DNA of 32,000 nucleotides from a cyanobacterium endosymbiont of Epithemia clementina EcSB (GCF_029919255.1 NZ_CP123991.1:1929833-1961832); one strand, 5' to 3'; shown: positions 4,738 to 31,974, counted from the stretch's first letter. The notes: a model not told the origin generated them from the sequence alone. Made by a program: numbers and translations.

Positions 4738-4760
4738 TATATAAAACCTGGTTTTATATA
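4738..4760. repeat. Palindrome, 11-bp arms
   Basis: TATATAAAACC-T-GGTTTTATATA. Confidence 0.7.
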
Positions 4761-4841
4761 CCGAAATAATGAAATTTTCTGTTCATAATTAAGTTATTAA
4801 ATTTGGAAATCACTAAGCGTTAAATAAAACTATATTTTAAC

Positions 4842-4861
4842 TTATCTAAATATTTAGATAA
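4842..4861. repeat. Perfect 20-bp palindrome
   Basis: TTATCTAAAT|ATTTAGATAA. Confidence 0.7.
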
Positions 4862-5169
4862 TCAAAATTACCATTCAAAAAACATAACTGACTCTATTTC
4901 TTTTTTTATTTTTAATAATAGCATTTTCTTACTCTAGTCGTATAACCATATGGATGTTTTTTCAAAAATTAAATACAGCTAAAGCCATATTTAATTCAAT
5001 ACACCCTTCTATTTTCAAAAATATTTTCTAGTTTTTCACCTTAATGCTTATTATTCTAGTTTAAAATTTCCTAATATTTGTAAGTTTTTTCTGGTTATTT
5101 CTTATTTGTTATACATACAACTTATATATTATTCTGTAATATTATTATTCTATAATTTGGCTATTTTTA

Positions 5170-5219
5170 TTTAAGTTAGATCGTTATTTTTTGAGCAAAA
5201 AATAACGATCTAACTTAAA
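5170..5219. repeat. Perfect hairpin, 23-bp arms and 4-nt loop
   Basis: TTTAAGTTAGATCGTTATTTTTT (5170-5192), loop GAGC, then AAAAAATAACGATCTAACTTAAA (5197-5219). It lies in the convergent gap between the gatD-like gene and the ferredoxin-like pseudogene. Confidence 0.95.
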
Positions 5220-5379
5220 CTTTTGTTTGCTTTCAAGTTTACTATATTTTCCTGATTTGTTAGTTTTTTCTGAATATTTTCCTATTTCGTCTGTTTTTTT
5301 AGACTATTAATTAAAAGTATTATCAATTTTTAATAAACGATAAACTCTAATCTTTACATATGCAGGGTTTAGTTTCAAG

Positions 5380-5648
5380 TTAAACTGGTTCATTAACCAA
5401 TGTTTGACAGGATAAGTGATAATTATCGGGCTTTTTCTTAAGTGCACACTTTTCAAAATCTGTTCGTGGTGACCAATTTTCTACCCCTTCAACAATTTCT
5501 ACGATACAAGTCCCACATTGACTATAGCCCCCACAATTAATGAGTTTTCCCTTTAGAGATCAATCTGGTTTTGTAGAGCCTTTTCTCTGAGGTTAGCTCC
5601 TTGAGCCGCGACAATATCTTTATTTTCCTTAACAAAAAAAATAGTCAT
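5380..5648 (-). pseudogene. Small 2Fe-2S ferredoxin-like gene (CGG-x-x-QCGTC type) disrupted by one 1-nt deletion
   Basis: The minus strand reads ATG(5648) [31 protein letters not shown] then TAA. Shifting one base continues [57 protein letters not shown] to the stop at 5380-5382. The total is 269 nt (3x90-1). The junction GATCTCTA-AAGGGA looks like GAT CTC TAx AAG GGA with one base lost. All four Cys are retained. Confidence 0.8.
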
Positions 5649-5754
5649 CTGCTTTTATCATCCGAATCTAAGTTTTTAACATTCTTCCATAATTTTTATA
5701 AGTTTTAAGACTCGGCTAATCTTAACTAACAATTTTGTTTCAGTTCAGTAGTAT

Positions 5755-6525
5755 TTATGTAATTCTAACAGGAACTTGGCGATCACGTAAGTATTCTTTG
5801 ACTTCACCAATGGACAACTTACCGCAATGGAGTAAAGAAGCTAATAAAGCTGCTTCAGCACGACCTTTAGAGAAGGATTCATAGATATGTCTACAATTTC
5901 CCGCTCCTCCAGAGGCAATTACTGGAATTTCTACTAGTTCAGCGATAGTGCGAGTTAATTCCAGATCATATCCAGCCTGAGTTCCATCCGCATCCATACT
6001 GGTTATTAACAATTCCCCTGCACCCCGTTTTTCCGCGTTTTGTGCCCACTCGATGGCATCTATCCCTGTACTTTCCCGTCCTCCTCGCACATAGACTTCC
6101 CAGCCGTCATTATCAGGATATTTGCGCCGTCTAGCATCAATAGCAACTACGATACACTGTTTACCAAAGCGATCACTAGCACGGTTGATAAAATCAGGTT
6201 TACGAACAGCGGCGGAGTTAATACTAATTTTATCAGCTCCGGCCCTTAACAGATTTTTGATGTTTTCTAGGGTTTGAATGCCACCCCCAACGGTTAAAGG
6301 GATGAAAATGGCTTCGGCAGTACGATAAACGACATCAATAATGGTGTCTCGTCCCTCATGAGTGGCAGTAATATCGAGAAAGACTAATTCATCAGCCCCA
6401 GCATCATTGTAGACTTTTGCTAATTCCACAGGATCTCCAGCATCTTGGAGATTAAGAAAATTAACACCTTTGACCACGCGACCGGCACTAACATCGAGAC
6501 AAGGTAAAATTCGTTTAGCTAACAT
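5755..6525 (-). CDS. hisF: Imidazole glycerol phosphate synthase cyclase subunit HisF
   Basis: Full-length 256-aa match to the HisF pattern: [47 protein letters not shown]...IPLTVGGGI...[12 protein letters not shown]...IVVAIDA...[17 protein letters not shown]...[22 protein letters not shown]...[10 protein letters not shown]. Confidence 0.97.
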
Positions 6526-6621
6526 TTGGACGAGTTTTTTGGGTAAATATGATGTATTTAGTAGTTTATTTCTGATTTTAGACTTAAAAAGTAATCACAG
6601 AAATAAGAGTTTATTTTCAGT

Positions 6622-7845
6622 TTAATTGTTCAGAGTTTCAATGTTTACTTCTCCTTTTTCGGTCATCCAAACGAGAGTTTTGATGTGATTTTTCAACGCA
6701 TAATTACGAATTTCTTCGGGAGAACGTCCTCCCAATTCTAGGGCTACCCTTAACTTTTCTGATGATTGTCTAAGTTGTTGAGCATAACTCAAGGCCATTG
6801 ATTGAGTCCGAGAAGTTTGAGCAATCACGAGGGAATCAATTAGAGGAGGAGTTTGCGGCAAAATAGCAGTGGTTAATAAACAAGTGTATATGTCTTCAAG
6901 ATTGAAAGAAAATCCAATACCTGGAGCTGATGTTTGCTGAGGATGGTAAACCCCAAGAAGTTTGTCATAGCGTCCACCCTGACCTAAAATTTGTAATTGG
7001 TTGTTGTTTTTTCCAATAGCTTTAAACACAATTCCTGTATAGTAATCAAAGGTTTGAATTAAACTTAAATCTAAGGTAAATGGAAAGGGTTTTGACCAGC
7101 TTGTTTCAATTAGTTCGACCAAGGCTCTTAGATTATTAACACTTTTTTGTCCAGCCTTATCCAACTCTAATTGGACAACTTTTTGGAGTACCTGAGCAGG
7201 AGTTCCCCGTAAATCAAACAATAATTTTCCTCGTTGTTGTAAGTCAACAGAAGGGTAGTCAAGATTTTCTAGGGTGACATAGTCAAGTTGAGCTAAACAT
7301 TGACGCACTTGACTTTTGAGGGAACCTGGAAAGGGTTCAAGAAGTGATCGCGTGAGACTAGCTTCTCCTAAAATGAGATGCCAATGGGGAATTCCTAACT
7401 GTTCGAGACAATCAGCGACTAATAATAAAATTTCCGCATCCGCTAACACTCCTCCCGAAAAAAGCAATTCTACCCCTGCTTGATAAAACTCTAATTGTTT
7501 TCCGTGATGACCAACCGGAGGATCCCGAAAAACATTAGCACGATAACAGAGGCGTTGAGGATAAGTGGTATCAGCCATGCGAGTAACAGCAGTTCTGGCA
7601 ATCGAGGCAGTTAGTTCTGGCCGCAATCCTAATTGCCCTGTAGAACTATCCTGTAGTTGAATAACCGTTGAAGGATCAATAGCTCCTCCGGCCATCAATG
7701 TTTCTAACCATTCAATGGTGGAAGTGACAACACGTTGATATCCCCATTGTCCAAAGACTTGTTGAAGAAGATCATTAATCCAAGCCTTTTGTACGACTTC
7801 GAGAGGAAGTAAGTCTCTTGCTCCTGCAGGTGGTTGATGAATCAT
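6622..7845 (-). CDS. hisZ: ATP phosphoribosyltransferase regulatory subunit HisZ (HisRS paralogue)
   Basis: Motifs seen: PAGARDLLPLEV, WGYQRVVTSTIEWLETL, LGLRPELTASIARTAV, QRLCYRANVFR, LEFYQAGVELL, DAEILLL. This is the HisZ rather than HisS pattern. The gene is 407 aa and lies next to hisF. Confidence 0.85.
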   Translation of the reverse strand: MIHQPPAGARDLLPLEVVQKAWINDLLQQVFGQWGYQRVVTSTIEWLETLMAGGAIDPSTVIQLQDSSTGQLGLRPELTASIARTAVTRMADTTYPQRLCYRANVFRDPPVGHHGKQLEFYQAGVELLFSGGVLADAEILLLVADCLEQLGIPHWHLILGEASLTRSLLEPFPGSLKSQVRQCLAQLDYVTLENLDYPSVDLQQRGKLLFDLRGTPAQVLQKVVQLELDKAGQKSVNNLRALVELIETSWSKPFPFTLDLSLIQTFDYYTGIVFKAIGKNNNQLQILGQGGRYDKLLGVYHPQQTSAPGIGFSFNLEDIYTCLLTTAILPQTPPLIDSLVIAQTSRTQSMALSYAQQLRQSSEKLRVALELGGRSPEEIRNYALKNHIKTLVWMTEKGEVNIETLNN

Positions 7846-8125
7846 GGTTTTCTTTCGCCTATTGCTTTGTATTGTTTTGCCCCAAAAAGGGGAGGTTAAA
7901 GTTCTGTCTTTTAGCCTAGCTTAGGATTGCCTTTTACCAGTGGAGTATAAACTACTTCTTTTTCCCGAACAAAGAGCTAAACAGTTTTCCCTCAATTGAT
8001 TTATCAGAAGATTTGTGTTTGTCATTGCTCATTAGTTGATCAAGAGATTTTTTAGCTTAAATAACCACCAGGTGTTTAGAGTTTCCTTGCGGAGCTTTAT
8101 TGATATGAACCCTAGTCATGGTGAG

Positions 8126-8640
8126 TCAATTTTCTTCAAAAGAAGCTAATCCGAGTGCTTCATGACATACTGAATTATTTGGTTCAGTTTTCAGGGCTTC
8201 TCGTAATTCTATAATGGCTTGGGACATTATATTCTTGGCGCTCAAGATGTCAACGCGCCCGTCTAATGACAGAATAAACAACGGAAACAAAAGTTTTTTC
8301 AATCTATAGCTGTTGTTTAGGGTCTTCTAGATCAAATTTAGGTTTAGGCAGTTCAGGAGAAGGTTTAATTCTAGTTTTTTCCCTTGCCGCATTCATTATT
8401 TAGATAAACTAAATTCAATTCATCAAGTTTACAGTGTTTACCAATGCTTGAGCCAAGTCCTTATACTGTTCATAAATTAAGGATTTAATTAACTTTTAGA
8501 TAAATTCAATGAGTGTTTTGAGTCACTGTAACCTGAAATAATTTGTAGGCAGTTTTAGCGCCTAAAGTAATATAGCTCAGCATCTCCGGCTAAATCCAGA
8601 CCATTCAAGCTGGCCTTTTGAGGGGGTTTTCTAGGCAGGA
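8126..8640 (-). pseudogene. TPR-repeat protein fossil (multiple in-frame stops)
   Basis: One minus-strand frame reads ..LDLAGDAELYYFRR*NCLQIISGYSDSKHSLNLSKS*LNP*FMNSIRTWLKHW*.. and ends ..SQAIIELREALKTEPNNSVCHEALGLASFEEN*. Both parts fit the TPR consensus (AEAYYNRG.AY...G.Y..AI..F.KAI.LNP). Codon starts at 8638 and 8128 are in phase (510 nt apart). The upstream limit is unclear. Confidence 0.45.
8226..8253 (-). promoter_or_regulatory. Perfect sigma70-type consensus promoter motif (TTGACA-16 nt-TATAAT) pointing toward hisZ
   Basis: The minus strand reads TTGACA (8253-8248), then TCTTGAGCGCCAAGAA, then TATAAT (8231-8226). It lies inside the TPR fossil, about 380 nt upstream of the hisZ ATG. 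Function is untested and a chance match is possible. Confidence 0.3.
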
Positions 8641-8973
8641 TTAACTTATTGTTATAACAAGTTATTCTCTAGTTTCTTCCTGTTTTCTATTTTCCCCTTA
8701 CAGGTATTAAAATGAAGACAAAAAGCAACTTTCAGGTAACGTTGGGAAATTTACTTGATATCCACATCTATCGGAAGCCCAAGAATTGTATAGTAATAGT
8801 GGTAGATGAGATCATATTTAAATAGTCCTTGTTAAATAGGAAGGCTTACGCCAAATTTTAAGCCCACCCCTTCAGTGACTGAAACTTTTCTTTTTTCTTA
8901 TGTCGTTATCATCTCTACTGTGTCTTCAAACACCAAATTTCTAGCTGTATAACTAGGATCACCTAGCGCTCGA

Positions 8974-9816: not shown

Positions 9817-9952
9817 GACTGATAGTTAACAATAAACCATTGATAATTCAATAATGGATAAATCTCGTTATAAAACGAAATCTTAAAGCTGGTTTTAAAA
9901 ATATTGATTTCTCTCCAATAATTGAGGATATGATTACATATAATCTATTAAT

Positions 9953-10321
9953 TTAATCATCATCCATAAAAATTTTAAATTTCTTTTTCACCCTCCTAAA
10001 ATGTTGTCCAAATTGAATCTCATAAACTTCATCCTCATTTTGAGTTTCTATTTCTAAGCTAGATCGAGCATAACTAACACACAACAGAGCATAACCTTTG
10101 TCTTTCAATTCTGGAGATAATCCTACAGCTTCAGGTTGATAGACTTCTCCTGATAGAATACGTACAGCACAGGTAGTATAAGCCCCATTTCTACACAAAC
10201 AAGGTAATTGATTACCTTGTTCTTCGACGCTATGAAGAATGTAGTTATTATTGGGAACTTCTAAGGTGTATTCTTTTCCTTCTTGACGATGGTTGATGCG
10301 AACTGTATGATGACGGGTCAT
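9953..10321 (-). CDS. Plant-type 2Fe-2S ferredoxin with C-terminal extension (FdC2/Fed2-like), ligand Cys replaced by Tyr
   Basis: Sequence seen: MTRHHTVRINHRQEGKEYTLEVP..YILHSVEEQGNQLPCLCRNGAYTTCAVRILSGEVYQPEAVGLSPELKDKGYALLCVSY...NEDEVYEIQFGQHF. The track ORF begins at an upstream GTG (10384). ATG 10321 fits the family length better. Confidence 0.8.
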   Translation of the reverse strand: MTRHHTVRINHRQEGKEYTLEVPNNNYILHSVEEQGNQLPCLCRNGAYTTCAVRILSGEVYQPEAVGLSPELKDKGYALLCVSYARSSLEIETQNEDEVYEIQFGQHFRRVKKKFKIFMDDD

Positions 10322-10492
10322 AGTCGAACAAGACAGAGTACTAGTGACAGTTAGAAACAAACTTAGACCTGACGATAACCCCACTCTTCTCCTATGGTAG
10401 ACTTTTTTGCTTTTCTCGTAAATAGTTAAGTTATTAAAACATTAATATAAATCGAGTCTCTGATTATTTATCAGGTTAATCAATGTTCACTC

Positions 10493-18471: not shown

Positions 18472-18513
18472 ATTAAGTACTTCATTGCTATATATAGCAA
18501 TGAAGTACTTAAT
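18472..18513. repeat. Perfect 42-bp palindrome (21-bp arms, no spacer)
   Basis: ATTAAGTACTTCATTGCTATA|TATAGCAATGAAGTACTTAAT. I checked it base by base. Confidence 0.95.
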
Positions 18514-18818: not shown

Positions 18819-18994
18819 TCTTCTAGACTAGAAGTCTTGCTTGGCAAAGTTTCCAAGATACTAAAAACTTGATTCTTATATAAAGGAGAGTTTTTAATTA
18901 AGTTTTCAGAGTTATAGAACACCGTAAAAATAGGAGTTTGGGAGTTTATTCTCTACTTATTTTTTATACTCAGTCTAGAATAGCCATAATCATT
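18819..18994 (+). repeat. Copy 1 of a diverged ~180-bp direct repeat flanking mnmA
   Basis: It shares collinear blocks with 20525..20720: TCTTCTAGACT; TTGCTTgGcAAAGTTTCCAAGAT.AC.AAAACTT.ATT (about 33/41 identical, including a 14-mer); GAGTTT / GGAGTTT; and CTAGA.TA.GCCAT.AT. The spacing between blocks is similar in the two copies (134 vs 124 nt). Confidence 0.6.
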
Positions 18995-19154
18995 ATAATT
19001 AATACTCTTCTGATACAGACTTCGTCTCTAGTACTTAATGTTAAACATTCACTCTTAAGCTAGATTTATCGAATAACAATCAAAGTTCATAAGCCAACAG
19101 TCATAGGTGATGAGTTATCCTAAATAAAGTAAGGTTACGAGAAACAAAAGTGTA

Positions 19155-20204
19155 ATGGAAAAAGTTCTAGTCGGTTTGTCAGGGGGTGTTGATAGTTCTG
19201 TTGCGGCTGCTAGTCTTCAGCATCAAGGTTATGAAGTTATTGGGTTAACCCTATGGTTAATGAAAGGGAAAGGACAATGTTGTTCAGAGGGAATGGTAGA
19301 TGCAGCTTTAATTTGCGAACAGTTGAGTATTCCCCACCATATTGTTGATAGTCGTGATGTATTTCAAGCTAATATTGTCGATTATTTAGTGTCAGGTTAT
19401 GAGTCAGGGATAACGCCTCTTCCCTGTTCCAAATGTAATAAGGTGATCAAATTTGGCCCTATGTTAGAATATGCTAAACAAAAATTAGAGTGCAATCGCA
19501 TCGCCACTGGTCATTATGCACGTGTTCGCTACGATGAAGTTAATCAGCGCTATCAATTATTACGAGCAGTTGATTGTAATAAAGATCAGTCTTACTTCCT
19601 CTATGATCTTTCCCAAGAAATGTTAGCGGGAACTATTTTTCCTTTGGGAAATCAAACCAAGGAAGAAACCAGAAAAATTGCTAATGAATTCAATTTGAAA
19701 ACCGCAAGTAAACCTGAAAGTCAAGATTTATGTTTAATTGAAGCTTATGGATCTATGAAAACTTTTTTGGATCAACGTATTACTCAAAAAGAGGGGGATA
19801 TTGTTAGTCTCGACGGCAAAGTATTAGGAAAACATCAAGGAGTTCATCACTATACTGTTGGACAACGTAAAGGCTTAGGCATTGCTGCAACTGAGCCCTT
19901 ATATGTAATAAAACTCGATCCCGTAACAAACCGGGTTATTGTTGCTAATCGTGGCAATGCAGGATGTTCTGATTGTATTGTAAATAGAATGAATTGGATT
20001 TCAATTCCTGAACCCTCTTCTCCTATTCAGGTAGAAACTCAAATTCGCTATCGTTCTCCTGCAGTTCCAGTTGATGTTGTTCCTTTGGATAATCATCGTA
20101 TCAAATTAGTCTTTTATGAGCCTCAATTTGGGATTACTCCAGGTCAAGCAGCAGTTTTATATGATGGGGAAATTGTATTAGGAGGCGGTATTATTGAAAG
20201 ATAA
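19155..20204 (+). CDS. mnmA: tRNA-specific 2-thiouridylase MnmA
   Basis: It has the PP-loop [15 protein letters not shown], plus [29 protein letters not shown], and GQA.VLYDGE.VLGGGII at the C-terminus. Confidence 0.95.
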
Positions 20205-20524
20205 AAGCCTATTTATATATAAAGTGTATTGAAAATAAGGTTCAATGTCATCTGTCGAGAAGGGTTCAAATAAATTTTGAGTATTCTCCAAACATGAGAT
20301 TGTGTGGTGTTATTTTTTATGAACGAATCAGTATTAATATTTAAGTAATCCCTGAAATCAAGCCAAACATTTGTTTTTAACTATATAGAGTAATTTTACT
20401 GATATCCTTAGAAAGGTATACCTAGAAAAGGAAGATGGCAAGATTCAGAGTAATAGGTCCAAAAAGAAATTTAAATCAACCTTCTTAAGAGCTTTACGTA
20501 GTAATTAACTTTAATTATTTTAGT

Positions 20525-20720
20525 TCTTCTAGACTGGCTGTGATAACAGCGTAATAAACAAAAGTTAAAAGTTTTGCTTTGTAAAGTTTCCAAGATTACG
20601 AAAACTTAATTTTGGTAAGAATTGAGTTTCTGGAGTTTAGAAAATTCAATTAAAATAAGAATTCTGAAAGTCATTAGCTACTAATTTAGTATACGTTAGG
20701 CTAGATAAGCCATGATTCTT
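20525..20720 (+). repeat. Copy 2 of the diverged direct repeat flanking mnmA
   Basis: See copy 1. This copy carries a ~34-nt insertion after TCTTCTAGACT relative to copy 1. Confidence 0.6.
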
Positions 20721-21146
20721 TTGTCATTTTTTTAAAAAAAACTTAACCAATAATTGCTTAAAAAACAACAGAAAAAACTCTCTATGGTTAGTAAGATTTA
20801 TAAAGAAGTGAAAAAGAAATTTAACCCTTTTAAAAAAATACAGTTTTTACTATCAGATTTAATATCGCTTTTAGCATTATTGAGCTCATTAGTTTTCAAG
20901 TTTCATTAGCTTAAGCTAGTGTAGTAAGTTTAGTCGGTAGCCGGTACGGCAAATTTGCTGTTGTTTATTTAAAATGCTACTTCCTTAGACTTTTTTAAAA
21001 TTTTTATTTTATATCTTTTAAATTTCATCTCTTTGAGAGACCATAAACCCAAGATTGCAACAATAGACTGACTGTTCCCTTGAATAGGGTAGTCTTAAGA
21101 AAGATGAAGGTATTATCCTAAGCTAGGTAATGTTTACCCTAGAAGG

Positions 21147-21217
21147 CATTGATAAGCTTATCAATGTTCTTAGCACAATACATAGTGCATTGCACTATGC
21201 TATAGTTTATCTGTGCT
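21147..21217. repeat. Cluster of nested inverted repeats
   Basis: The cluster holds CATTGATAAGCTTATCAATG (20-bp palindrome, 21147-21166). It also holds TAGCACA...TGTGCTA enclosing CATAGTGCA-T-TGCACTATG (21181-21199). It lies about 125-195 nt downstream of the small secreted-protein gene (minus strand). Confidence 0.7.
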
Positions 21218-21341
21218 ATGCTCCAAAAAGCATTAATGACAGTTATTTAATTCCTGAAAAAAGTACGTGATAACTCAGTCCCCTTTTGACTACATTCTTA
21301 GCGAGAACACATCTAACAAAAAATTTTAGCTCATCTCTTGT

Positions 21342-21662
21342 TTATTCTGGAGTTGCTGATTCAAGGAGAAAATACTCACCATTTTTCTTAAAAACAAGAA
21401 TGCGATCACCTCGATCAATTGATGTCCCTGGATGATGAAATCTCAATTTTGTATTATCCTCAAGCTTTACAAATAAAACACTACCATAAGGCCCTGAAAT
21501 AATTCCAACAATAGTCCCTGACTGGTAGGGACTATCGTACCCTAAATTTGGGTTAGCAGCTCTCTCTTCTAAATTCAATTGGCGAACAGTTTGAGCGTTC
21601 GCTATGGTAGTCACGCAAACCAGAGCCATCATGCCCATCAATATATTGAAAATTCTCTTCAT
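21342..21662 (-). CDS. Hypothetical small secreted protein (106 aa)
   Basis: ATG 21662 is preceded by GAGGGA 6 nt upstream and followed by a classic signal peptide, MKRIFNILMGMMALVCVTTIANA-Q. The longer 173-aa track ORF adds an AT-rich, low-complexity extension that overlaps the upstream kinase gene. No family was recognised. Confidence 0.55.
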   Translation of the reverse strand: MKRIFNILMGMMALVCVTTIANAQTVRQLNLEERAANPNLGYDSPYQSGTIVGIISGPYGSVLFVKLEDNTKLRFHHPGTSIDRGDRILVFKKNGEYFLLESATPE

Positions 21663-21855
21663 GGTAATTCCCTCTAAGTAGGAGAAACGCCCCTTTGTTT
21701 CCCTTTCTTCAACTCTAGAAGGATTTTTTATCTCACACCATAAAGATAAGATTATAACTACAAGATATGACAACAAACAACGACTGTAAAAAAAATAATA
21801 GTTGTTAAGAACATTTAAATTAAAGAGATAAGTTTGAATCTCAATTAAACAACTA

Positions 21856-22722
21856 TTAATCATTAACTATTTTAGACATCCATTGACGAGTTCCGAAATA
21901 CTGACAAGCAATGGAGGCAACTTGAGAAGCTTCTGCTATAGAATCCTTAAAATTGTGTTTTAGAATAAAATGACAAAAAGCTCCATGAAAAATATCTCCA
22001 GCTCCTAATGTATCAACCGCTTTGATTTTTGACACTTTAATATTTCCTGATTCCTCGTTAGTCCAATATTGAACTGGATTTGCTCCTTTAGTAATAGCAA
22101 TATAAGGAATTTTAAACCATTTTAAATAGTTAAATACATCGAGAGAACTAAGACAATTAGGGGGATAAAAATTGTCAGAGCAAATCGCATAATTTACGTA
22201 AGGAAGAACTTTTGGTAATCCAGATTTCCAGCTTCCTCCATCTAAAACAACGGGAATTTTTAACCGTTGCGCTTCTTTGGCAATCATAATACTCGTAGAT
22301 ATTTGATGCCCGTCTACTAAGATAACATCAACATCCTGTAATTTTTCCAAAAAAAGTTCATTATTAATAATGGCTGTAGATTTGGTAGCATTTATCGAGA
22401 CAACAGCCCGTTCTCCTGTCGTTTGGTTAACAATAATTGAAGAAGTAGATAAAGGGTTTTGTTGATAGGGATTCAGATCAAAAACCTTGACTGAATACTC
22501 GTTTAATTCAGCATAAATTAATTGACTAATGGGATGATTTCCAATCACACTTAATAAGGTGGCTCGATTACCAAAATATCTAAAAGTGATAGCCGCATTC
22601 GTTGCTGGTCCACCCGCAGAAATTGTTTCATCAATGGCTACAATTTTTTCATTACTGTGGGGAAAGTGATCGGTAAGATAAATTAAATCTAGGGTTGTTA
22701 AACCGATAAATAATCCATTCAT
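21856..22722 (-). CDS. PfkB-family carbohydrate kinase (ribokinase-like)
   Basis: It has the N-terminal G-rich sugar-binding pattern (IGLTTLDLIY ... SAGGPATNAA) and the C-terminal PfkB signature AVDTLGAGDIFHGAF. Confidence 0.85.
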   Translation of the reverse strand: MNGLFIGLTTLDLIYLTDHFPHSNEKIVAIDETISAGGPATNAAITFRYFGNRATLLSVIGNHPISQLIYAELNEYSVKVFDLNPYQQNPLSTSSIIVNQTTGERAVVSINATKSTAIINNELFLEKLQDVDVILVDGHQISTSIMIAKEAQRLKIPVVLDGGSWKSGLPKVLPYVNYAICSDNFYPPNCLSSLDVFNYLKWFKIPYIAITKGANPVQYWTNEESGNIKVSKIKAVDTLGAGDIFHGAFCHFILKHNFKDSIAEASQVASIACQYFGTRQWMSKIVND

Positions 22723-22733
22723 GAGTTGTAAAA

Positions 22734-23603
22734 ATGAGCAATGAAATCCTACAAACAGGAACCCTTTATGTTGTCGGAACCCCCATTGGTAATTTGGAAG
22801 ATATGACCTTAAGGGCGATTCGTATTCTAAAATCAGTGAATTTGATCGCCGCAGAAGATACCCGTCACACAGGAAAACTCCTACATTATTTCCAAATTAA
22901 CACTCCCCAGATAAGTTATCACCAACATAATCGATTGTCTCGTCAAGATGAGTTAATTAGCTATCTACAACGCGAAAAAACTATTGCTTTAGTCACTGAC
23001 GCAGGAATGCCAGGTATTTCTGATCCAGGGTATGAATTAATTAAAGCTTGTATTGATAAAAATATTGCTACTATTCCGATTTCCGGGGCGAATGCTGCCA
23101 TCATAGCCCTATCTGTTTCGGGTCTACCTACGGATCGGTTTGTTTTTGAAGGGTTTCTTTCCACGAAAAGCAAAATTAGGGGCGATCGTTTAACGTCTTT
23201 GAAGACGGAAACTCGTACCCTAATTTTTTACGAGTCCCCCCATCGTCTATTACAAACTTTGACCGATTTAAGGGCAGTTTTCGGAGAAAATCGTTTAATT
23301 ACAGTAGCTAGAGAATTAACGAAATTATATGAAGAATTATGGCGAGGAATCCTAGGGGAAGCAATCAACCGTTTTCAAGATTCACGACATCTGAAAGGGG
23401 AATTTACCTTAATTATAGCAGGATGTCAGGCAACCTCCAACTTAATATTAACTGAAGAACAATTAAAGAAAGAATTAAGACAATTGTTAGACGGAGGAAT
23501 GACGCGATCACAAGCGAGTCGTCATCTGGCACAATTAACCTCTTTTAACCGTCGTCAAATTTATGAGTTATCTTTAGAAATTAATAGTTCTAGTCAAGAT
23601 TAA
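22734..23603 (+). CDS. rsmI: 16S rRNA (cytidine1402-2'-O)-methyltransferase RsmI
   Basis: Motifs seen: GTLYVVGTPIGNLEDMTLRAIRILK.V.LIAAEDTRHTGKLL, SDAGMPGISDPGYELI, PGANA, FEGFL, IFYESPHRL, and ARELTKLYEE. Confidence 0.93.
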   Translation: MSNEILQTGTLYVVGTPIGNLEDMTLRAIRILKSVNLIAAEDTRHTGKLLHYFQINTPQISYHQHNRLSRQDELISYLQREKTIALVTDAGMPGISDPGYELIKACIDKNIATIPISGANAAIIALSVSGLPTDRFVFEGFLSTKSKIRGDRLTSLKTETRTLIFYESPHRLLQTLTDLRAVFGENRLITVARELTKLYEELWRGILGEAINRFQDSRHLKGEFTLIIAGCQATSNLILTEEQLKKELRQLLDGGMTRSQASRHLAQLTSFNRRQIYELSLEINSSSQD

Positions 23604-23689
23604 AATTTCCAAAATATATAGATATTACTCATTTAATAAAATTACTATTTTTAGTTTTTAACTTTGGAGTATTTATAATTACACTTTTT

Positions 23690-24174
23690 ATGTATCAGGC
23701 TGGGTTCTTCCGATAATTCACAATCTGAATAACCTAGTAACTTTTTTATAAAATGGAGAACCCCATGCTGAAGTAAAAAAATGAGCCAGCAGTTTTAATC
23801 GGTAATTATCTCTACTCTGATATGTTTCCCCTGTCTAAATAGATTCAAATTGTCTCTGACATTGCCAGAAGAGGAATAGCAAGACTTGCGACACAATGGA
23901 GGATAACTAGACAACTTTTTAGAGTTAACTACGGGAATTTAAGAGATAATTTGAATCTCACGACCTTTACATCTGAACAAATTGATGAGATAGAAACTAA
24001 GTGCATTGGTCTATCTTTTGTAGAAAAACTTTAACTTTTGATGGACAACAATTTGCTCTTCACCTTATCATACCTAATATTTACTTTCGCGTGACAACCG
24101 CTTATTATACCTTTCGTTATTGCGGCGCATAAATTGGTAAACATGATTATCTCAGTTCTGCTCAGAATTTATGA
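23690..24174 (+). pseudogene. DUF1993-family gene fossil (many stops and at least 2 frameshifts)
   Basis: From ATG 23690 one frame reads MYQAGFFR*FTI*IT**LFYKMENPMLK*KNEPAVLIGNYLYSDMFPLSK*IQIVSDIARRGIARLA. A shifted frame then gives MEDN*TTF. A third frame gives TLTFDGQQFALHLIIPNIYFRVTTAYYTFRYCGA*IGKHDYLS. These are collinear with the DUF1993 pattern recalled from memory (MxLYQAS.P.F...L.NL..IL.K...HA....DPAVLL..RLAPDMFPL..Q.QIASD.AKG.AARLAG....FEDNETTF ... LTF.G..YL..F.LPNFYFHVTTAY.ILR..GV.IGK.DYLG). The 485-nt length fits a ~165-aa protein. Confidence 0.75.
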
Positions 24175-24703
24175 TAATTATCATAGTGTATGCATTTTTA
24201 GCCCAATTTAAGGTAAATATTCAGCTTTTTAAGTAAAAAAATATTTAAACATTGTTTAATGGTAATTAAGTACAAGCTTTTTAAAATGTTATAATCAAGC
24301 AACTATAAATGTTTTAAAATTGTCCAAAATAATATTAATTTTATTGGTTTATTACATTTATTTATGGTGAGCAAAATCAAGGAATAGCTATTTTAAAATA
24401 GCCATATTTATATCATGCACTGAGTCCCAATTAATGTAAAATAGTTCTGCTATATTCATTTTTATTAGAAACTATATTTTTACTTTTCTTTTAAAAGAAA
24501 TCGTAAGAAATGTCTTTAGTCTGCGCATTAATCACAAGGATAGTACTAACTTTTTCTGTTGTTTTTTGTACGTCAATAGTATTATTGCTATCCATAATAG
24601 TTATAAAAAAAATAGAACAGAAACTATTTATGATAATAAAATATGCACTTATCTGAGCCTAAATGAACAGGTTTAGTTACAGTTTGATAGTTAAAATTCT
24701 GTG

Positions 24704-24734
24704 ACTAGTTAATAGACTTAATCTATTAACTAGT
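24704..24734. repeat. Hairpin, 13-bp arms and 5-nt loop
   Basis: ACTAGTTAATAGA, loop CTTAA, then TCTATTAACTAGT. Confidence 0.85.
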
Positions 24735-25054
24735 TTAAATATGACACATAATAATTGTTTTAAACAATGACTAATTTAAGTGCTAATTTTAGAATTATAA
24801 CAACAAAAAAATACACTTTAATAGGAGTTAAATGAAACTTTAAAAATCTAATGAAATTTAGTACTATAAACTTAGTTAAATTTCAAGAATACTAGTTTTA
24901 GATTAAAAAGTAGAGTTGTTTTAAAAAATTAATCTTTATGGTTAACTAAACTCTTGACTACCTCAATGTTAATTCCTAACTCCCAAAAATCACTAGAAAT
25001 CGTGTATAATGACAGTTTTGGAGTAACTATGTATTTTAGGAGAAAATCTGTTAT

Positions 25055-25663
25055 ATGTCTCGTTATAGAGGACCTCGCTTAAGAGTTGTACGACGACTAG
25101 GAGAACTCCCTGGCTTAAGTCGCAAAACCCCCCGTCGTGCTTATCCCCCAGGGCAACACGGACAAGGACGTAGAAAGCGTTCAGAATACGCTATTCGTCT
25201 CGAAGAAAAACAAAAACTGCGCTTTAACTATGGCGTAACAGAAGGTCAACTAGTACGCTATGTAAAAAAAGCTCGTCAAGCTACAGGTTCTACCGGTCAA
25301 AAACTTCTAGAATTGCTAGAAATGCGCCTTGATAATACAGTGTTTCGCTTAGGGATGGCGGGAACAATTCCAGGAGCCCGTCAGTTAGTCTCTCACGGTC
25401 ATGTTACCGTTAATGGCAAAGTTGTTGATATCCCTAGTTATCAGTGCCGTCCTGGGGAAGTAATCTCAGTTCGTAATCAGGATCGTTCTCGTCGCCTAGT
25501 AGAGGCGAATATGGAATACCCTGGTCTGGCCAACCTTCCAAGTCATTTAGATTTTGATAAAAATACCTTGACAGGAAAAGTCAATGGAATTATCGAACGG
25601 GAATGGATAGCTTTACAAATTAATGAATTGTTGGTAGTTGAGTATTATTCTCGGAAAGCTTAG
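25055..25663 (+). CDS. rpsD: 30S ribosomal protein S4
   Basis: [23 protein letters not shown] ... [21 protein letters not shown] ... LE.RLDN.VFRLG.A.T...ARQLV.HGH..VNGK.V.IPSY. The 202-aa length fits. AGGAG lies 12 nt upstream of the ATG. Confidence 0.97.
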
Positions 25664-25669
25664 AAGAGT

Positions 25670-25698
25670 ATTGGATAACTTCAATAGTTGTCCAATTT
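25670..25698 (+). terminator. Hairpin immediately after the rpsD stop
   Basis: ATTGGATAACT (25670-25680), loop TCAAT, then AGTTGTCCAAT (25686-25696). The 11-bp stem has one A/G mismatch and is followed by TTTACT. The U-tract is weak. Confidence 0.4.
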
Positions 25699-26086
25699 AC
25701 TCATGAACTTCGATTATTTAACTTGACTTAAAAATTTTAAAAATAATAAATATAAAATCTTTTGATCCTATCAAAGTTTATCTCCAATAATCGAGTCTTT
25801 TTTACAGTTATTTATAGTTTTTCAGGGATTTGGGTTACCTCGCAATGTAGTGATGATATCACCAACGGTGTAGTTCTCTTTCTTAAAAAAACCTTTATGA
25901 CCTTAATAATTATGTAGAGTCATTGCCAGAGACTAGGGCAAAAGTTAATTACTAGACAACTTATTTTTATTGTATACGCACTTAACAAAATCATAAACTT
26001 ATGTAGTTTAAGGAAATTAATCCTCTATTTCATTGAAACTATCCTTTTCAGGATTTACTTGGGAATTAAGAAAGTGTAATTACAAA

Positions 26087-26788
26087 TCAATCGGTTCTTG
26101 TTACTTCGTCGGTTCCAAAGGTTTCAACTAATCGTACTAGCGGTGACCGAGATACAGGGGCGGCTATGATGGTACTTCTTTCTGTTAGCCAAGGGCTAAC
26201 CGTTGACACCAGACTGCTAAGTCACTTTACTATACCCACCAAGAATTTTGGGTTAGTCTTTTTGGGGTTCTTTAACTAAAGTTTGGACAATGTCATAGAA
26301 GAAGATAGGTTTGATCGAGCAAAACCTTTTAACTTTCCGACCATATCCGCATAGGTGAGAGAAGGAGGCAAAACAACCACTCGGACATTATAGGGAACTA
26401 GTTATTCTCATAAGGCTTAAGTAAAGCCCGAAAGAGTCAATTTAGTTTTCAGATGAGTTGCGATGGTGGGGCGGCAATTTTTCCTATTAAACTCGCTCGA
26501 AAATTTTATTGGGTCATACATCGGGCTACAAACCGAGTAATGCCATGGGTTTCCATTAAATTGATAGCCAATTCATTGTCAATTTGAGATAATCGAGTTA
26601 TCAAAAAAGAACTTTATTCTTATCAGGCTTGACTAATAGTTTTGATTGACAGTAGTAAGTTTAAGTTTGGCATTGCGGACTACCAATAATAGACGTCTGA
26701 AATCATGGCAAGCCAATTCAAGAGGGCCCACTCGTCTAATCCTACGGAAAGCCCCTGTGACTATTACTGTTTTTCCTGAAATTTTCAT
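26087..26788 (-). pseudogene. Short-chain dehydrogenase/reductase (SDR) fossil: 8 in-frame stops, no net frameshift
   Basis: From ATG 26788 the minus strand reads MKISGKTVIVTGAFRRIRRVGPLELACHDFRRLLLVVRNAKLKLTTVNQNY*, a decayed TGxxxGIG Rossmann start. The same frame continues through ..SNLSSSMTLSKL*LKN.. (decayed YxxxK) and ..VSTVSPWLTE.. (decayed PG..T) to the stop at 26087. I checked codon phase at 26368 and 26089. The span is 234 codons, a typical SDR length. Confidence 0.75.
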
Positions 26789-27267
26789 ATTCAACACCTC
26801 AACTCAATTCAAAATATTAGGGGTTAGGCGCATAAAGATTTTGTACTCGTTTCATGGGAGATGAGTACAGAGGGGATTCTTCCTACACGTTTCAAGAATT
26901 GAAAAGAACTTAGACCGCAACAAGCATTTAAAATTAATTAGTTAATGACTATTACTTAGGGGCGTTAACCTTAAATTCCATTTAATCTATCTCTTTTTCT
27001 GACTAATTCCTACGCTAAAGATGTGTACATACTCGCATATAAAATAGGATTACCGCTAACTGTTTTATCGTAACTTTTTTTCTTCCACAAAAAACTTTTG
27101 TCTATGATGTCGTCACTACTTTATAAATGAAAGAGTAAAAGAGTATAAGAGACTAAATATTGGTTCTAATAGGATATTGATGGTACGTATCTTTGATACG
27201 AGAGTTGACCGGATTGACCTGAATAACAAAGTTAAGTAACCAAATCAAAGATTAAAAATAAATCTTC

Positions 27268-27323
27268 ATAATTATAGCTAGTCTATCCACTCTAATAAGA
27301 GTGGATAGACTAGCTATAATTAT
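27268..27323. repeat. Perfect hairpin, 26-bp arms and 4-nt loop
   Basis: ATAATTATAGCTAGTCTATCCACTCT (27268-27293), loop AATA, then AGAGTGGATAGACTAGCTATAATTAT (27298-27323). Confidence 0.95.
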
Positions 27324-28398
27324 ATTCATCTGTTACTAAATTTATATACTAAATTAATAGGTTTATTCATAGTTCTATAATTTGGAAATTATTGGGCTTA
27401 CAAATATTGTTCTAATTTTGATCGATAGTTTTTATTGATATTAAGATAATATGGAAATACAAATATAGTTTTTTTCTATGAATTTTATTGTTTTTATGAC
27501 TTTCTCAACTTATTATCAATACTTTCTACAGTTCCCTGAGTTGTTGATAAATTCATATAGGCAATGATTTTCCAATCTGACGTCTAATTTACAATTGTTT
27601 AGCATCTAGCTCTAATAAATAAGATTTATTAAACTAATTAACTAACTCTAATAGTCCTTAAATTTAGTCTATTTTTTTTAAAAACCTGTTATAAATTACT
27701 ATTTATATTAGAGCATTTTGAAGAATACTGACTGAGTTTTATACACTTAGTTTAATTTGTATTTTTGTTTGCTACTTATATTTTATATATCCCCGATAAT
27801 AGCAAATTTTGTCTTATTTAAAATTGCTATTTTTTCAAGCTAGCAATTTTAAATTTTCTATCTTCTTGTTTAAGAACTTATTTCTGACTATATGGTCAAA
27901 GATTAATTTTTTTCATTCTATAAAATTTATTTATTATTAATTTAGCTTGTGGCATGAATTTATAACATTATTACAAAATTTCCAAAGCTCTATACTAACT
28001 TCTTTTCTTTTTGTAAACACCTCTTTCCCTCAAACTTCTAGTTGTTCTACTATTTTCTTATATTTTCTCATTGCTATCATTTATAAATTTATTTATTTAT
28101 CTAATTTTACTAACACTAAATAATAACTTTCTTATTCTTTAATTAGAAAGTCTTTATCAATTGCCAGCCGTTTCAATAGCTGAGGCATTCTTATGTGTAA
28201 TTCTTAATTTAAATCTTTAAAAATTGTTTCTATTTCTTATTCAATTACTCCACTATCGCTATTTAAGATCTTTTCAATTAATTTGATCTTATTTGTATAT
28301 GTGCTTTGTTAAAAACACATAAGATAGTAAGCCGTTAATTTTTATATCGTTTATTACTTGATATTTGAAGTATTAAATTAGGTTTAAAAATTGCGTTT

Positions 28399-28440
28399 AA
28401 TATAGTATCTTAGCTATAAAGATAGCTAAGATACTATATT
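28399..28440. repeat. Perfect hairpin, 19-bp arms and 4-nt loop
   Basis: AATATAGTATCTTAGCTAT, loop AAAG, then ATAGCTAAGATACTATATT. Confidence 0.95.
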
Positions 28441-28497
28441 TATATCTTTTTTGGGGAAAATAGACTTATTTAAGCTCTAATTAACAATAGACATAAA

Positions 28498-28521
28498 CTC
28501 GTTAATCAGAAGATTAACGAG
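28498..28521. repeat. Hairpin, 10-bp arms and 4-nt loop
   Basis: CTCGTTAATC, loop AGAA, then GATTAACGAG. Confidence 0.8.
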
Positions 28522-28982
28522 CTCAGGATATAATAAGTTATCAGAATATTTTCTATTTATCCACTATAGTTAATTGATTTTACCATCTATTTTTTTTCTG
28601 TTCATGTTTATTTGAAAATAATTTTTAATTAAAAGTATAGATAACCTGACCTATCAAATCAATTAAATTAACCATGTACTTAAGAAAAAGATTCGTTTTT
28701 TTTAAAAAAATTCATAAAGAAGAAAAATATAATTCAAGATGTTCTTGAGTTATAAAAGGTTAAATCAGATGTATAAATAGCTACAGAAGTTACCATAATT
28801 TTTTGGCGAATTGTAAATAATGAAATTTAGTTATTCAACTAAACTTTAATACTTAATTTCTAAAGAAAAACTAAATTTATTCAACGTTTACAGAAGTTTT
28901 GACTAGCATAGGAGATGTATATGGCTTTAAAAAAAATTAAAGAATGTTATTCAAATCTCACTCATCATTAAATTAATCAACT

Positions 28983-30113
28983 ATGAAATTTGTTGACGAA
29001 TACCGCGATGCTAACTTAGCTCAACAATTTTCCAGGAAAATTGCCCAGATAACCACCAAAGATTGGAAGATAATGGAAATCTGTGGTGGACAAACCCATT
29101 CTATTGTGAAATATGGAATTGATGAACTTTTACCCTCAAAAATTACTTTGATTCATGGACCAGGTTGTCCAGTATGTGTAACCCCTATTCAATTAATTGA
29201 TTCTGCCTTAAAAATTGCTGCTCTTCAAGATGTAATTTTCTGTTCCTTTGGGGATATGTTACGAGTCCCTGGAACCGATGAAGATTTGCTTACCATCAAA
29301 GCAAGGGGGGGCGATGTTCGCATCGTGTATTCTCCTTTGGATTGTCTTAAACTTTCCGAGGAAAATCCTAACAAACAGGTGGTCTTTTTTGCTGTCGGGT
29401 TTGAAACCACTGCCCCTGCGACCGCCATGGTTGTTTATCAAGCTGAACAACGCGCAATAACCAATCTTTCTTTATTAGTGTCTCATGTCCTGGTCCCCCC
29501 CGCCATGGAAACTATTTTAGGGTCACCTCAATCCCAAGTACAAGGATTTTTAGCCGCCGGTCATGTTTGCACAGTAATGGGATATGAAGAATATAATCCC
29601 ATTGCCCAAAAATACGGCGTTCCTATTGTAATAACAGGGTTTGAACCCGTTGATGTTCTCCAAGGAATTTATCTATGTCTGCAACAGTTAGAGTCAGGAC
29701 AAGCATACTGTGAAAATCAGTATGTCCGTTCCGTGGAGCAACAAGGTAATTCTATAGCAAAACAAATTATTCAAGAAGTATTTGAGGTAGTTACCCGTCA
29801 ATGGCGAGGTATTGGGGAGATTAATAAAAGTGGCTTAGGTTTGCGGGAAAAATACGCTAGTTTTGACGCCTTGAAACGGTTTGCTTTAGAATGCCGAGAA
29901 GAGGAGTTACTTTTAACCAAACCCTCTTATGTCTCTTCGATTTGTATTAGTGGGGAAATCATGCAAGGCCGTAAAAAACCCCAGCATTGTCCTGCCTTTG
30001 GGAAAGAATGCGCCCCAGAACATCCGTTAGGCGCACCGATGGTATCCTCAGAAGGAGCTTGTGCTGCTTATTATCGCTATCGTAGTTATCAAAGTCGAAC
30101 ATTGATGGTTTAA
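28983..30113 (+). CDS. hypD: [NiFe]-hydrogenase maturation protein HypD
   Basis: Motifs seen: [53 protein letters not shown], and the C-terminal Cys-rich region ..[31 protein letters not shown]. Confidence 0.93.
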
Positions 30114-31048
30114 GAAGTCAAAACCTTATGGCAATATCTTTTCTTTTTACTTTGGTCGCAGCCTTGATAACCACAATAAAATTTAACTATACTATAAGTA
30201 CTGTCATTTTATATAAAATCTAAATCTTAAAATGACTGATTATCCTGATCCGAAATATAAAAATTAGCAACCGATACACTAGCGTAGACTTAGATAAGAA
30301 TTATCAAAAGACTCATATTCTATTGGGTTAAAAAGCAATCCAGTTTTTGTTGGTGTTACTGCCATTATCATTAGTTGATTAGACTCCTATTATTTTAAGA
30401 ACCTCTATTATTCTTTAGTTGGGAGAAATCTCTTCCCTTATTCAAAGACTTAATGATAATAAGCTAGAAGTTAGTAACTAAAATTTACTAGTTAACTTTA
30501 AAGCGTAAATTAATATTTTGAAGTCTTTGTTTAATCAATTTCTTATTAGTCGTTTCAGAGAAGATGAAAAGATAGTCTATTATTACTGCTAATCGTTTAT
30601 CCGAGATGTTTAACAATTTGTCTCATGACAGCGTGAACTGTTTCTAGCTAAGAGAAAGTTATGAACTTGTTTATTGAATCAAGTTAAATATAAATTGACT
30701 TTATCCGGTAAATTTTAAGTATTAATAATATAACCATTAATACCTGTTTTAGTAAAGTAAACTAACGTAAATTTATTGGCTATTCTTAGTTAAGGAATAA
30801 ACATGAAATAATTAAAGTAATTAGACAAATTATTTAGTTTTCTTTCGATGTTTTAGTAGTTTTTTAAAAAAAAGTTTAAAACTTAATATTCCCTATAAAA
30901 ACTCGATAAAAAAACTATTTATGACTAGTAGTTGGAATACTTTTTTTATTGAGTTTATGTAATAGAAAATAGTTGTTCTTCTTGAAAAGAAAAGCTAAAA
31001 TTTTCTAAAAGTACCAGCAATTTTAAATTTTAGAGATAGAGAAGAATG

Positions 31049-31103
31049 TTAAAATTGTTAACTTAATGCTTCTTTTTAAAAAGAATTAAGTTAACAATTT
31101 TAA
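31049..31103. repeat. Inverted repeat, 19-bp perfect arms and 17-nt spacer
   Basis: TTAAAATTGTTAACTTAAT (31049-31067) pairs with ATTAAGTTAACAATTTTAA (31085-31103). The spacer itself contains TCTTTTT/AAAAAGA. Confidence 0.9.
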
Positions 31104-31368
31104 AAAATTTCTTATAAAAATATTGTTCAATTTTATATTTATCTTATAAAGATAATTAAGACTTCAATAAAATTAATGAAAGTCTAGTTATTTCAATTTG
31201 AAATATAGTTTATTTATGGTCATAAAATTTGAGAGAATAGAAGCTTATTCTTTTAGTATTTTATAAGCTTTTATAAAGCTAGAGCTAATGAAAGCTGAAG
31301 AGTTGATTGATAATTGACATTAAATCTAAAAAAATTAGTAATTTAAGTAAATTTAAGTTTTTTATAAA

Positions 31369-31401
31369 AAAATAGTTACCATATATTATCGTAACTATTT
31401 T
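31369..31401. repeat. Inverted repeat, 11-bp arms and 11-nt spacer
   Basis: AAAATAGTTAC ... GTAACTATTTT. Confidence 0.75.
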
Positions 31402-31448
31402 ATTCATCCTAGAAAAATAATGTTTAAAATAATTTATTAATCCGCAAC

Positions 31449-31489
31449 TGTTAAGTATGATTATATTAATAATCCAATCATACTTAACA
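31449..31489. repeat. Inverted repeat, 14-bp arms and 13-nt spacer
   Basis: TGTTAAGTATGATT ... AATCATACTTAACA. Confidence 0.85.
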
Positions 31490-31932
31490 AGTTTTATAAC
31501 AATTAGAAAGATGTTTAAAAAAGAAACTAATAATACTAGTAGTTCACGTTTTGTTTTATTAAATGCATTGCCATTTTGTGAAGTACTGATAAGATAATTT
31601 TTAACAATTAAGGTTAATAAGTCTATAGAATAGTTGATTTAGACGTTGAAGTCTATTCTCTAAAGGTATTAATTCAAGAATTTTATATACATCATTAATT
31701 TTATACTTTTCGGAAATTTTAACCAAAGTTAAACATTATTGATTCTTCAATAATGTTAATGATGACTATGGTAAGATATATGGCAATAGTTAAGAACTAG
31801 TAAAGAAAACTCCCCAGCAGCTCAGATACATATTTTTCATGTTATTTATCTAAAAAAAGTATATTTTTATCTAAAAAATCTATACAAAGAAAATAAAAAA
31901 AATAAATCCAAATGGCGCACAAATAGTTCCTA

Positions 31933-31974
31933 TTTTAGTAAGATTAGTTAATTAATTAACTAATCTTACTAAAA
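31933..31974. repeat. Perfect 42-bp palindrome (21-bp arms, no spacer)
   Basis: TTTTAGTAAGATTAGTTAATT|AATTAACTAATCTTACTAAAA. I checked it base by base. Confidence 0.95.

Follow-up and report, generated by a model that had tools for sequence, protein, structure and literature searches.

Young perfect palindromes in the non-coding deserts of a diazoplast genome as probable scars of short-range template switching

The stretch of DNA analyzed here, 32,000 nucleotides from the cyanobacterial endosymbiont of Epithemia clementina (NZ_CP123991.1:1929833-1961832; hereafter "the window"), carries open reading frames (ORFs) for typical cyanobacterial housekeeping proteins, including HisF, HisZ, LpxC, BamA, PurC, NdhB, MnmA, RsmI, RpsD, and HypD. 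Between these genes lie AT-rich deserts of 1–3 kb with a G+C content of 21–30%, and the long-armed perfect inverted repeats found in these deserts are the subject of this report.

The window is DNA of a diazoplast, or spheroid body, of a rhopalodiacean diatom, that is, of a nitrogen-fixing and genome-reducing cyanobacterial endosymbiont related to Rippkaea and Crocosphaera. For its HypD protein, identity is 91% with the counterpart in the Rhopalodia gibba endosymbiont, 89% with that in the R. sterrenbergii endosymbiont, and 79% with that in the free-living Rippkaea orientalis; values of 86–87% apply to the proteins P0005 and P0006 of two further diazoplasts (encoded on 3.10-Mb and 2.48-Mb contigs) and to P0004 of a free-living relative (L091). 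The window matches a 3.07-Mb contig in GCA_052156355.1, whose HypD is identical. Published diazoplast genomes have a G+C content of ∼33–34% and contain more than 150 pseudogenes (PMC5638926, PMC12377750).

Orthologous loci for comparison were collected through homologous proteins and their encoding contigs. The sister diazoplast loci are L085 (R. gibba symbiont, CP067995), L088 (R. sterrenbergii symbiont), L090 (from the 3.10-Mb contig), and L092 (from the 2.48-Mb contig), all of which share the gene order mnmA-rsmI-rpsD-hypD-eda and have deserts that align with those of the window at ∼60–85% identity. Further loci come from a second strain of the R. gibba symbiont (L087), from a 5.4-kb diazoplast contig (L093), and from L094. 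Comparison within the species relied on GCA_052156355.1 (L001) and on an independent Logan short-read contig (L002).

An exhaustive scan of the window for maximal perfect inverted repeats with loops of up to 20 nt returned nine repeats with arms of 13–26 bp. An earlier reading of the sequence alone had listed eight of these, each of which the scan recovered in place, and had missed the one at 27816-27854. That reading had also divided its eight into five with loops of 0–5 nt and three with longer spacers; both kinds are present, in the numbers six and two. The nine perfect repeats, given without strand, and two imperfect ones are as follows.

5170..5219, perfect palindrome, arms of 24 bp, loop of 2 nt, flanked by hisF and a GATase_3-type gene in convergent orientation
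18472..18513, perfect palindrome, arms of 21 bp, no loop, in the spacer between the divergent ndhB and mnmA
24704..24734, perfect inverted repeat, arms of 13 bp, loop of 5 nt, in the rsmI-rpsD desert together with the remnant of a DUF1993 pseudogene
27268..27323, the largest of the perfect palindromes, arms of 26 bp, loop of 4 nt, in the rpsD-hypD desert
27816..27854, perfect inverted repeat, arms of 14 bp, loop of 11 nt
28399..28440, perfect palindrome, arms of 19 bp, loop of 4 nt
31049..31103, perfect inverted repeat, arms of 19 bp, spacer of 17 nt with partial pairing of its own
31449..31489, perfect inverted repeat, arms of 14 bp, spacer of 13 nt
31933..31974, perfect palindrome, arms of 21 bp, no loop
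30899..30956, imperfect inverted repeat (no strand), arms of 21 nt with two mismatches, loop of 16 nt, candidate for a member of the set that is older or decaying
31369..31401, imperfect inverted repeat (no strand), arms of 15 nt with one mismatch, loop of 3 nt

Chance does not account for these repeats, as the sequence-only reading had estimated from base composition. The null model consisted of 300 dinucleotide-preserving shuffles in 500-bp blocks, by which local AT content is retained. Against the nine observed repeats with arms of at least 13 bp, the shuffles gave a mean of 0.07; six repeats have arms of at least 16 bp and six have arms of at least 19 bp, lengths reached in none of the shuffles. 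At a threshold of 10 bp the excess is still evident, with 17 observed versus 2.1 expected. Predicted folding energies of the nine as single-stranded DNA lie between –10 and –26 kcal/mol (z-scores between –5 and –13); the hairpin at 5170, for example, has a predicted energy of –20.4 kcal/mol (z = –11.8).

The long-armed repeats are also confined to the deserts, in agreement with the earlier statement that none lies in an intact gene. All nine fall outside ORFs of at least 100 amino acids, a fraction that makes up 48% of the window (P = 0.0014). Nor are they products of assembly, since the same palindromes occur in independent assemblies from the same species: they recur base for base in L001, and the five that lie wholly inside the L002 contig, together with the repeat at 27816, are identical there as well, with surrounding DNA that differs by ∼0.2% in both comparisons. 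Across positions 18983-32000, about 28 events in 13 kb (0.2%) separate the window from L001 and L002, so that it stems from a closely related strain or from another assembly of the same species. A single one of these touches a palindrome, a base change at the outer arm edge at position 31050, by which the arms of the 31049 repeat are 17 bp long in L001 and L002 versus 19 bp in the window; it is uninformative about origin. Fold-back chimeras do arise in long-read assemblies, and an artifact of that kind was therefore considered; it has no specific support here, and the identity of the palindromes in L001, and in L002 where covered, leaves it with a negligible probability.

Comparison with the sister genomes is what gives these repeats a history. 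At the sites orthologous to the window palindromes, no perfect inverted repeat is found in L085, L088, L090, or L092. The DNA there is homologous to that of the window and is non-palindromic or only weakly palindromic, and each of the four loci has private perfect repeats of its own elsewhere, with arms of 13–27 bp. The palindromes are thus specific to single lineages. The pattern of a repeat that is perfect in one lineage, with a non-palindromic or quasi-palindromic orthologue in relatives, is seen in the window at 18472, 24704, 27268, 27816, 28399, 31049, 31449, and 31933, and at no fewer than eight sites in the sister lineages. For the ninth window palindrome, at 5170, no palindrome is present downstream of hisF in L093 or L094, where the alignment is poor and the sequences are too diverged for the change to be polarized.

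At several of the eight informative sites, the comparison also indicates which part of the repeat is new. Polarity, in the sense that one arm is as in the sisters and the other is not, often together with an insertion or deletion, is apparent at 27268, 31449, 18472, and 31049. At 31449, the ancestral parts are the right arm (CATACTTAA) and the spacer, both of which are found in L085 and L088 as well; the left arm departs at 6 of 14 positions from the state that these two have in common, each departure giving complementarity to the right arm. The right arm at 27268 matches R. sterrenbergii at 21 of 26 positions, with the inner part of the left arm replaced and 11 bp shorter; the 158-bp segment that holds this palindrome (27195-27352) is present in the R. 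sterrenbergii symbiont and in L090 and absent from the R. gibba symbiont, through a deletion specific to the latter lineage. At 18472, both L090 and L088 retain the right arm (ATGAAGTACTT), and nothing in them corresponds to the left arm. The left arm at 31049 is like that of R. sterrenbergii and the right arm is not; the R. gibba symbiont lacks the segment. The homologues at 24704 concur in three sisters, being non-palindromic and longer by 24 bp. In R. gibba, the orthologue of 27816 is equal in length and non-palindromic, that of 28399 is alignable and non-palindromic, and that of 31933 is a weak quasi-palindrome, longer by 11 bp.

Pooled over the eight polarizable cases, 75 of 144 paired columns (52%) show complementarity in the outgroup-majority sequence, as compared with 100% in the lineage that carries the perfect repeat. 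Because the outgroup value exceeds the ∼30% expected for random desert sequence, it suggests that the palindromes were seeded on pre-existing quasi-palindromes, although alignment bias may contribute to the difference.

The clearest examples of palindrome birth come from the sister genomes, at places where the flanking sequence is constrained or the background divergence is low, and there the pattern is unambiguous. Directly downstream of rpsD, all five genomes have a short hairpin (25670-25696 in the window, plus strand) in which ATTGGA and TCCAAT are separated by 15 nt and which starts 7 nt after the stop codon. It is likely a genuine 3′ element; it is also the sort of small hairpin on which template switches build, and it is given here for that context. 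In L090, six changes on the right side of this hairpin have turned it into the exact complement of the left side, resulting in perfect arms of 20 bp, of which the left includes the stop codon and is conserved in all five genomes. A second conserved hairpin lies 3′ of hypD, with a 7-bp core (GCTGCTA, A, TAGCAGC) common to four genomes. Here the left flank was overwritten in L088 to give 22-bp arms, and in the window lineage a 34-bp deletion removed the left arm and the center, leaving the following remnant.

30281..30298, plus strand, surviving right arm of the hypD 3′ hairpin

Position 30284 within this remnant is a G/A polymorphism between strains. Downstream of rpmF, an imperfect repeat with a long loop in L090 corresponds in L092 to a repeat with 27-bp arms and no loop (at 20580), accompanied by a 36-bp deletion.

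Such an event has also reached a coding sequence. The dacB gene for PBP4 of the R. gibba symbiont (L085 19086-20375), which is intact, contains a perfect inverted repeat with 18-bp arms at 19670-19714. Relative to four other genomes, its 9-nt loop has turned into the exact reverse complement (ACAAAAGTA to TACTTTTGT). The left arm has kept the ancestral state and five changes are found in the right arm, so that about nine codons have been rewritten in frame (RIIEQKYQTFLP to RSVDTFVQHFYA). An ancestral arm with replacement of the other is therefore clear in five instances, namely the rpsD 3′ repeat of L090, the hypD 3′ repeat of L088, dacB in L085, and the window repeats at 27268 and 31449. Inversion of the spacer is seen in the dacB loop and, in addition, as a polymorphism between the two R. 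gibba symbiont strains. These strains differ by ∼30 events in 12.4 kb, among them an exact flip of the loop from ATAA to TTAT in a perfect hairpin (L085 12483-12512 versus L087 9382-9411) and a T-to-A change in a 1-nt loop (L085 8884). Differences of this kind between strains show that the process is ongoing.

Taken together, these comparisons point to the palindromes as young, lineage-specific by-products of short-range template-switch mutation in decaying non-coding DNA, having no function of their own, a reading to which a probability of roughly 0.8 may be given. They look like neither a new functional element nor a family of mobile elements. The proposal in the sequence-only reading that the repeats were born recently, through template-switch or snap-back errors that perfect quasi-palindromes, is the one favored by the sister genomes. 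Mechanistically, a nascent strand in replication or repair synthesis would at times move to another template for a few tens of bases, by folding back on itself or by jumping to the complementary strand, often at an existing short or imperfect inverted repeat. It would then copy the reverse complement of neighboring sequence before returning to the original template. In one such event, an arm could be overwritten with the exact complement of the other arm, with a few bases lost or gained and the spacer possibly inverted, and the product would at once be a perfect hairpin of unique sequence. The polymerase would thus be the agent of change, and repeated switching may keep the arms homogenized. 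Homogenization of arms, inversion of spacers, and creation of perfect stems are the recognized signatures of short-range template switching (PMC8794818, PMC5453318, PMC8604942, PMC5941160). Within genes, selection would usually remove such events; in neutral AT-rich deserts they would be retained until eroded by point mutations and deletions. From this combination it would follow that only young, perfect, and lineage-specific examples stand out and that these are confined to deserts.

Some observations weigh against this interpretation. The asymmetry between arms, pooled over the cases, is only marginal (P = 0.056), a result attributable to a desert background that is itself 35–43% diverged from the outgroup majority. 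At 5170, 27816, 28399, and 31933, one outgroup or none is available, so that polarity is not established at these sites, and alignments of short AT-rich arms can be biased toward apparent homology. Spacer inversion is seen in none of the nine palindromes of the window itself. The mismatch spectrum comprises seven perfect repeats, one with a single mismatch, and three with two; this excess of perfect repeats over those with one or two mismatches (7 : 1 : 3), which is not statistically significant, hints at a burst of formation or at maintenance as opposed to steady-state birth and decay.

A further difficulty is that the arms share short words, which purely random template switching does not predict. 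As the sequence-only reading had noticed, TTAAGT/ACTTAA is present in the arms of four of the nine repeats, with a nominal P of 8 × 10⁻⁵ for that hexamer, one chosen post hoc from ∼2,000 classes, and replication in the sisters is weak (2 of ∼12 palindromes). In three of the four cases (5170, 18472, and 31449) the hexamer sits at the outer arm edge, a position that is likewise not predicted. In addition, 7-9-mers are common to the arms more often than to random desert segments (P ∼ 0.01), and a GCTA/GCTAT word is found at the inner arm edge in three repeats (18472, 27816, and 28399). Such recurring words at arm boundaries may mark preferred points of template switching or may reflect local oligonucleotide bias. 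HIP1 is the highly iterated palindrome of cyanobacteria, and the arm at 5170-5193, which holds AGATCGTT, may contain a decayed HIP1-like (GCGATCGC) site.

Among the alternatives to template switching without function, selection for functional elements would have the repeats serve in gene-poor DNA as terminators or insulators, as stabilizers of RNA 3′ ends like those of plastids, or as binding sites for dimeric proteins. The predicted thermodynamic stability of the hairpins is very high, perfect repeats are more numerous than those with one mismatch, and short hairpin cores directly 3′ of rpsD, hypD, and rpmF are conserved among diazoplasts and were the seeds of three sister-lineage palindromes. 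Against such a role stands the lack of conservation of the palindromes themselves. Absence of positional or sequence conservation in sister genomes had been named beforehand as part of the outcome that would refute selection, and none of the nine window palindromes is kept as a palindrome in any of the four sisters. Their sequences are all different and their positions relative to genes are inconsistent, with some at 300–1,600 bp from any gene end and with the 18472 palindrome between divergent gene starts, in a promoter spacer. There are no real T tracts of the kind that follow the G+C-rich stem of a Rho-independent terminator directly 3′ of a gene, terminator-like sites number 8 versus 6.9 expected in the window, and a scan of the window for promoter consensus sequences gave no enrichment. 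The conserved rpsD hairpin at 25670-25696 alone is in the right position for a plastid-type 3′ RNA stabilizer, and the window lineage itself deleted half of the conserved hypD 3′ hairpin. Selected function is accordingly improbable for the long palindromes. An origin from mobile elements, either as foldback transposons resembling miniature inverted-repeat transposable elements (MITEs) or as the footprints or ends of a hairpin-recognizing transposase or nuclease encoded elsewhere (TnpA/TnpB of the IS200/IS605 type), is still less credible. The shared TTAAGT/ACTTAA motif with its outer-edge position, the excess of short words common to the arms, and degraded DDE-type transposase fragments nearby in L001 and L085 are what such an origin can draw upon. 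These fragments are not of the IS200/IS605 type, however, and no second copy of any arm, at up to three mismatches, exists in ∼170 kb of related sequence (the window, L001, L085, L088, L090, L092, L093, and L094), in keeping with the earlier judgment that the repeats form neither a multi-copy MITE nor an array of clustered regularly interspaced short palindromic repeats (CRISPR); the arms are all different and their spacing is irregular. Multiple copies with shared terminal inverted repeats and clean insertions with target-site duplications, as expected of MITEs and foldback transposons, are also missing in that sequence: at the sister sites there is a single arm or a quasi-palindrome instead of an unoccupied site with its target duplicated, which places the origin of the repeats in situ. 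For IS200/IS605 hairpin ends in particular, the window contains no tnpA or tnpB ORF or fragment, every hairpin is different, and a Pfam search of the ten longest stop-free desert segments found no remnant of Y1 transposase or TnpB, the only match being a Fer2 fragment. The suggestion of active maintenance in the sequence-only reading, whether as insulators, terminators, protein-binding sites, or IS200/IS605-TnpB footprints, is thus not borne out, given the lack of conservation, of T tracts, of consistent position, and of a transposase in the window.

Closest to the preferred explanation is a mechanistic variant of it, in which the palindromes are scars left at deletion junctions by fold-back, or snap-back, priming in the repair of double-strand breaks. 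Net deletions relative to the sisters accompany several of them (24 bp for 24704, 11 bp each for 27268 and 31933, and 36 bp for L092 20580), loops of 0–5 nt would suit a physical snap-back, and the genome is in deletional reduction. The events at 27816, 31449, and dacB were neutral in length, on the other hand, and precise inversion of the spacer together with homogenization of the arms is the classical signature of template switching in replication. Break repair is on this evidence the less likely route, if a much stronger contender than function or transposition, and fold-back at breaks and template switching at the fork are inseparable by sequence alone.

If short-range template switching produced these repeats, the mechanism as such is not new. 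Quasi-palindrome correction by template switching has been described in the Ripley model and in later genome-scale work (Löytynoja & Goldman 2017, PMC5453318; Mönttinen & Löytynoja 2022, PMC8794818), and hotspots are known in Escherichia coli (PMC7202029). As in those systems, a single event converts a non-palindrome or quasi-palindrome into a perfect repeat with one ancestral arm, several nucleotides change together with small insertions or deletions, and the spacer may be inverted. The present case differs in its unusually high density, about 3 per 10 kb overall and ∼6 per 10 kb when non-coding DNA alone is counted, in arms of up to 26–27 bp, and in its setting, the neutral deserts of a young organelle-like endosymbiont, with no RNA product. 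The perfect inverted repeats of Proteobacteria (Lavi et al. 2018, PMC5941160) are alike in being over-represented relative to null models and in that template switching has been invoked for them; they are conserved across related genomes, however, whereas the repeats described here are lineage-specific, in deserts ∼60–85% identical between species.

Plastid genomes offer another parallel. Their setting, like that of the diazoplast repeats, is AT-rich, non-coding, and organelle-like. Small inversions associated with hairpins were reportedly recognized in plastids by Kelchner and Wendel in 1996. Spacers there flip between close relatives (reviewed, for example, in PMC12371153), as they do in the R. 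gibba symbiont strains and in dacB, although the plastid cases are mostly flips of existing and often functional 3′ hairpins, as opposed to the new long palindromes far from genes described here. There is also a resemblance to repeat families that form hairpins and are scattered through the intergenic DNA of endosymbionts or cyanobacteria. Like MITEs, the Rickettsia palindromic elements and the cyanobacterial Nezha and SDR elements are multi-copy families with shared sequence. In the diazoplast repeats, by contrast, the arms are single-copy and have arisen in situ.

How unusual the abundance of such repeats may be is indicated by comparison with other genomes. Repeats with arms of at least 13 bp occur at 2.8 per 10 kb in the window. 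Of five sister diazoplast loci, four have 0.75–2.4 per 10 kb and one, the 5.4-kb L093, has none. Over 80 unrelated bacterial hypD loci, which total 1.37 Mb, the value is 0.11 per 10 kb, and two free-living relatives have no such repeat. The gap is in part due to the large fraction of neutral non-coding DNA in diazoplasts. Loss of repair functions offers one tentative explanation for the high density. All rhopalodian endosymbionts retain 24 of 27 DNA-repair proteins and lack PhrB, RNase HII, and RecQ (PMC12903740), and in yeast, loss of RNase H2 specifically raises the frequency of mutations that extend the arms of quasi-palindromes (PMC3820800). By analogy, the diazoplast clade may have a strongly elevated rate of short-range template switching, possibly through the loss of RNase HII and RecQ, and the high density of palindromes would then reflect that loss; such a link is conceivable rather than probable. 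Were it true, the birth of hairpins, the flipping of their loops, and the deletions associated with them would together be a leading cause of the decay of non-coding DNA in a nitrogen-fixing organelle that is just emerging, with an occasional change to a protein as well, as in dacB, and some new hairpins might be co-opted as plastid-like 3′ RNA elements.

The diazoplast-genome papers that were text-searched mention neither hairpins nor inverted repeats, and a wider literature search yielded no paper that joins a palindrome term with Epithemia and spheroid bodies. The density of palindromes in diazoplasts and its possible connection with rnhB and recQ therefore appear not to have been described before in the diazoplast-genome papers searched. 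If the pattern extends genome-wide, at least six closely related and syntenic genomes of organelles in the making would constitute a natural system in which template switching could be measured at high density, and the process could be linked to the loss of particular repair genes (rnhB, recQ). The repeats also carry a caution, in that conspicuous perfect hairpins in the decaying DNA of an endosymbiont need not be regulatory or mobile.

Other features of the window are of lesser bearing on the long palindromes. The shorter inverted repeats of 10–11 bp reported earlier at 4738, 4842, 21147, 28498, and 31369 are all present, with another at 31732, and two 11-bp inverted repeats lie inside ORFs, at 10198 and 14349. 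Scans of the window against Rfam and for tRNAs gave no matches. Gene relics in or near the deserts include the following.

5383-5559, minus strand, 2Fe-2S ferredoxin fragment (Pfam Fer2, E = 2 × 10⁻⁷), a gene relic in a desert
9953-10384, minus strand, ferredoxin-like ORF of 143 amino acids with an odd N terminus, a gene relic in or near a desert
∼23843-24031, plus strand, remnant of a DUF1993 gene that is still intact in L090

Outside the window, the desert downstream of hypD/eda contains short, degraded fragments of DDE transposases (DDE_Tnp_1_3, ISL3) in L001 (15620-15751) and L085 (13708-13830), which are relics of past insertion-sequence activity.

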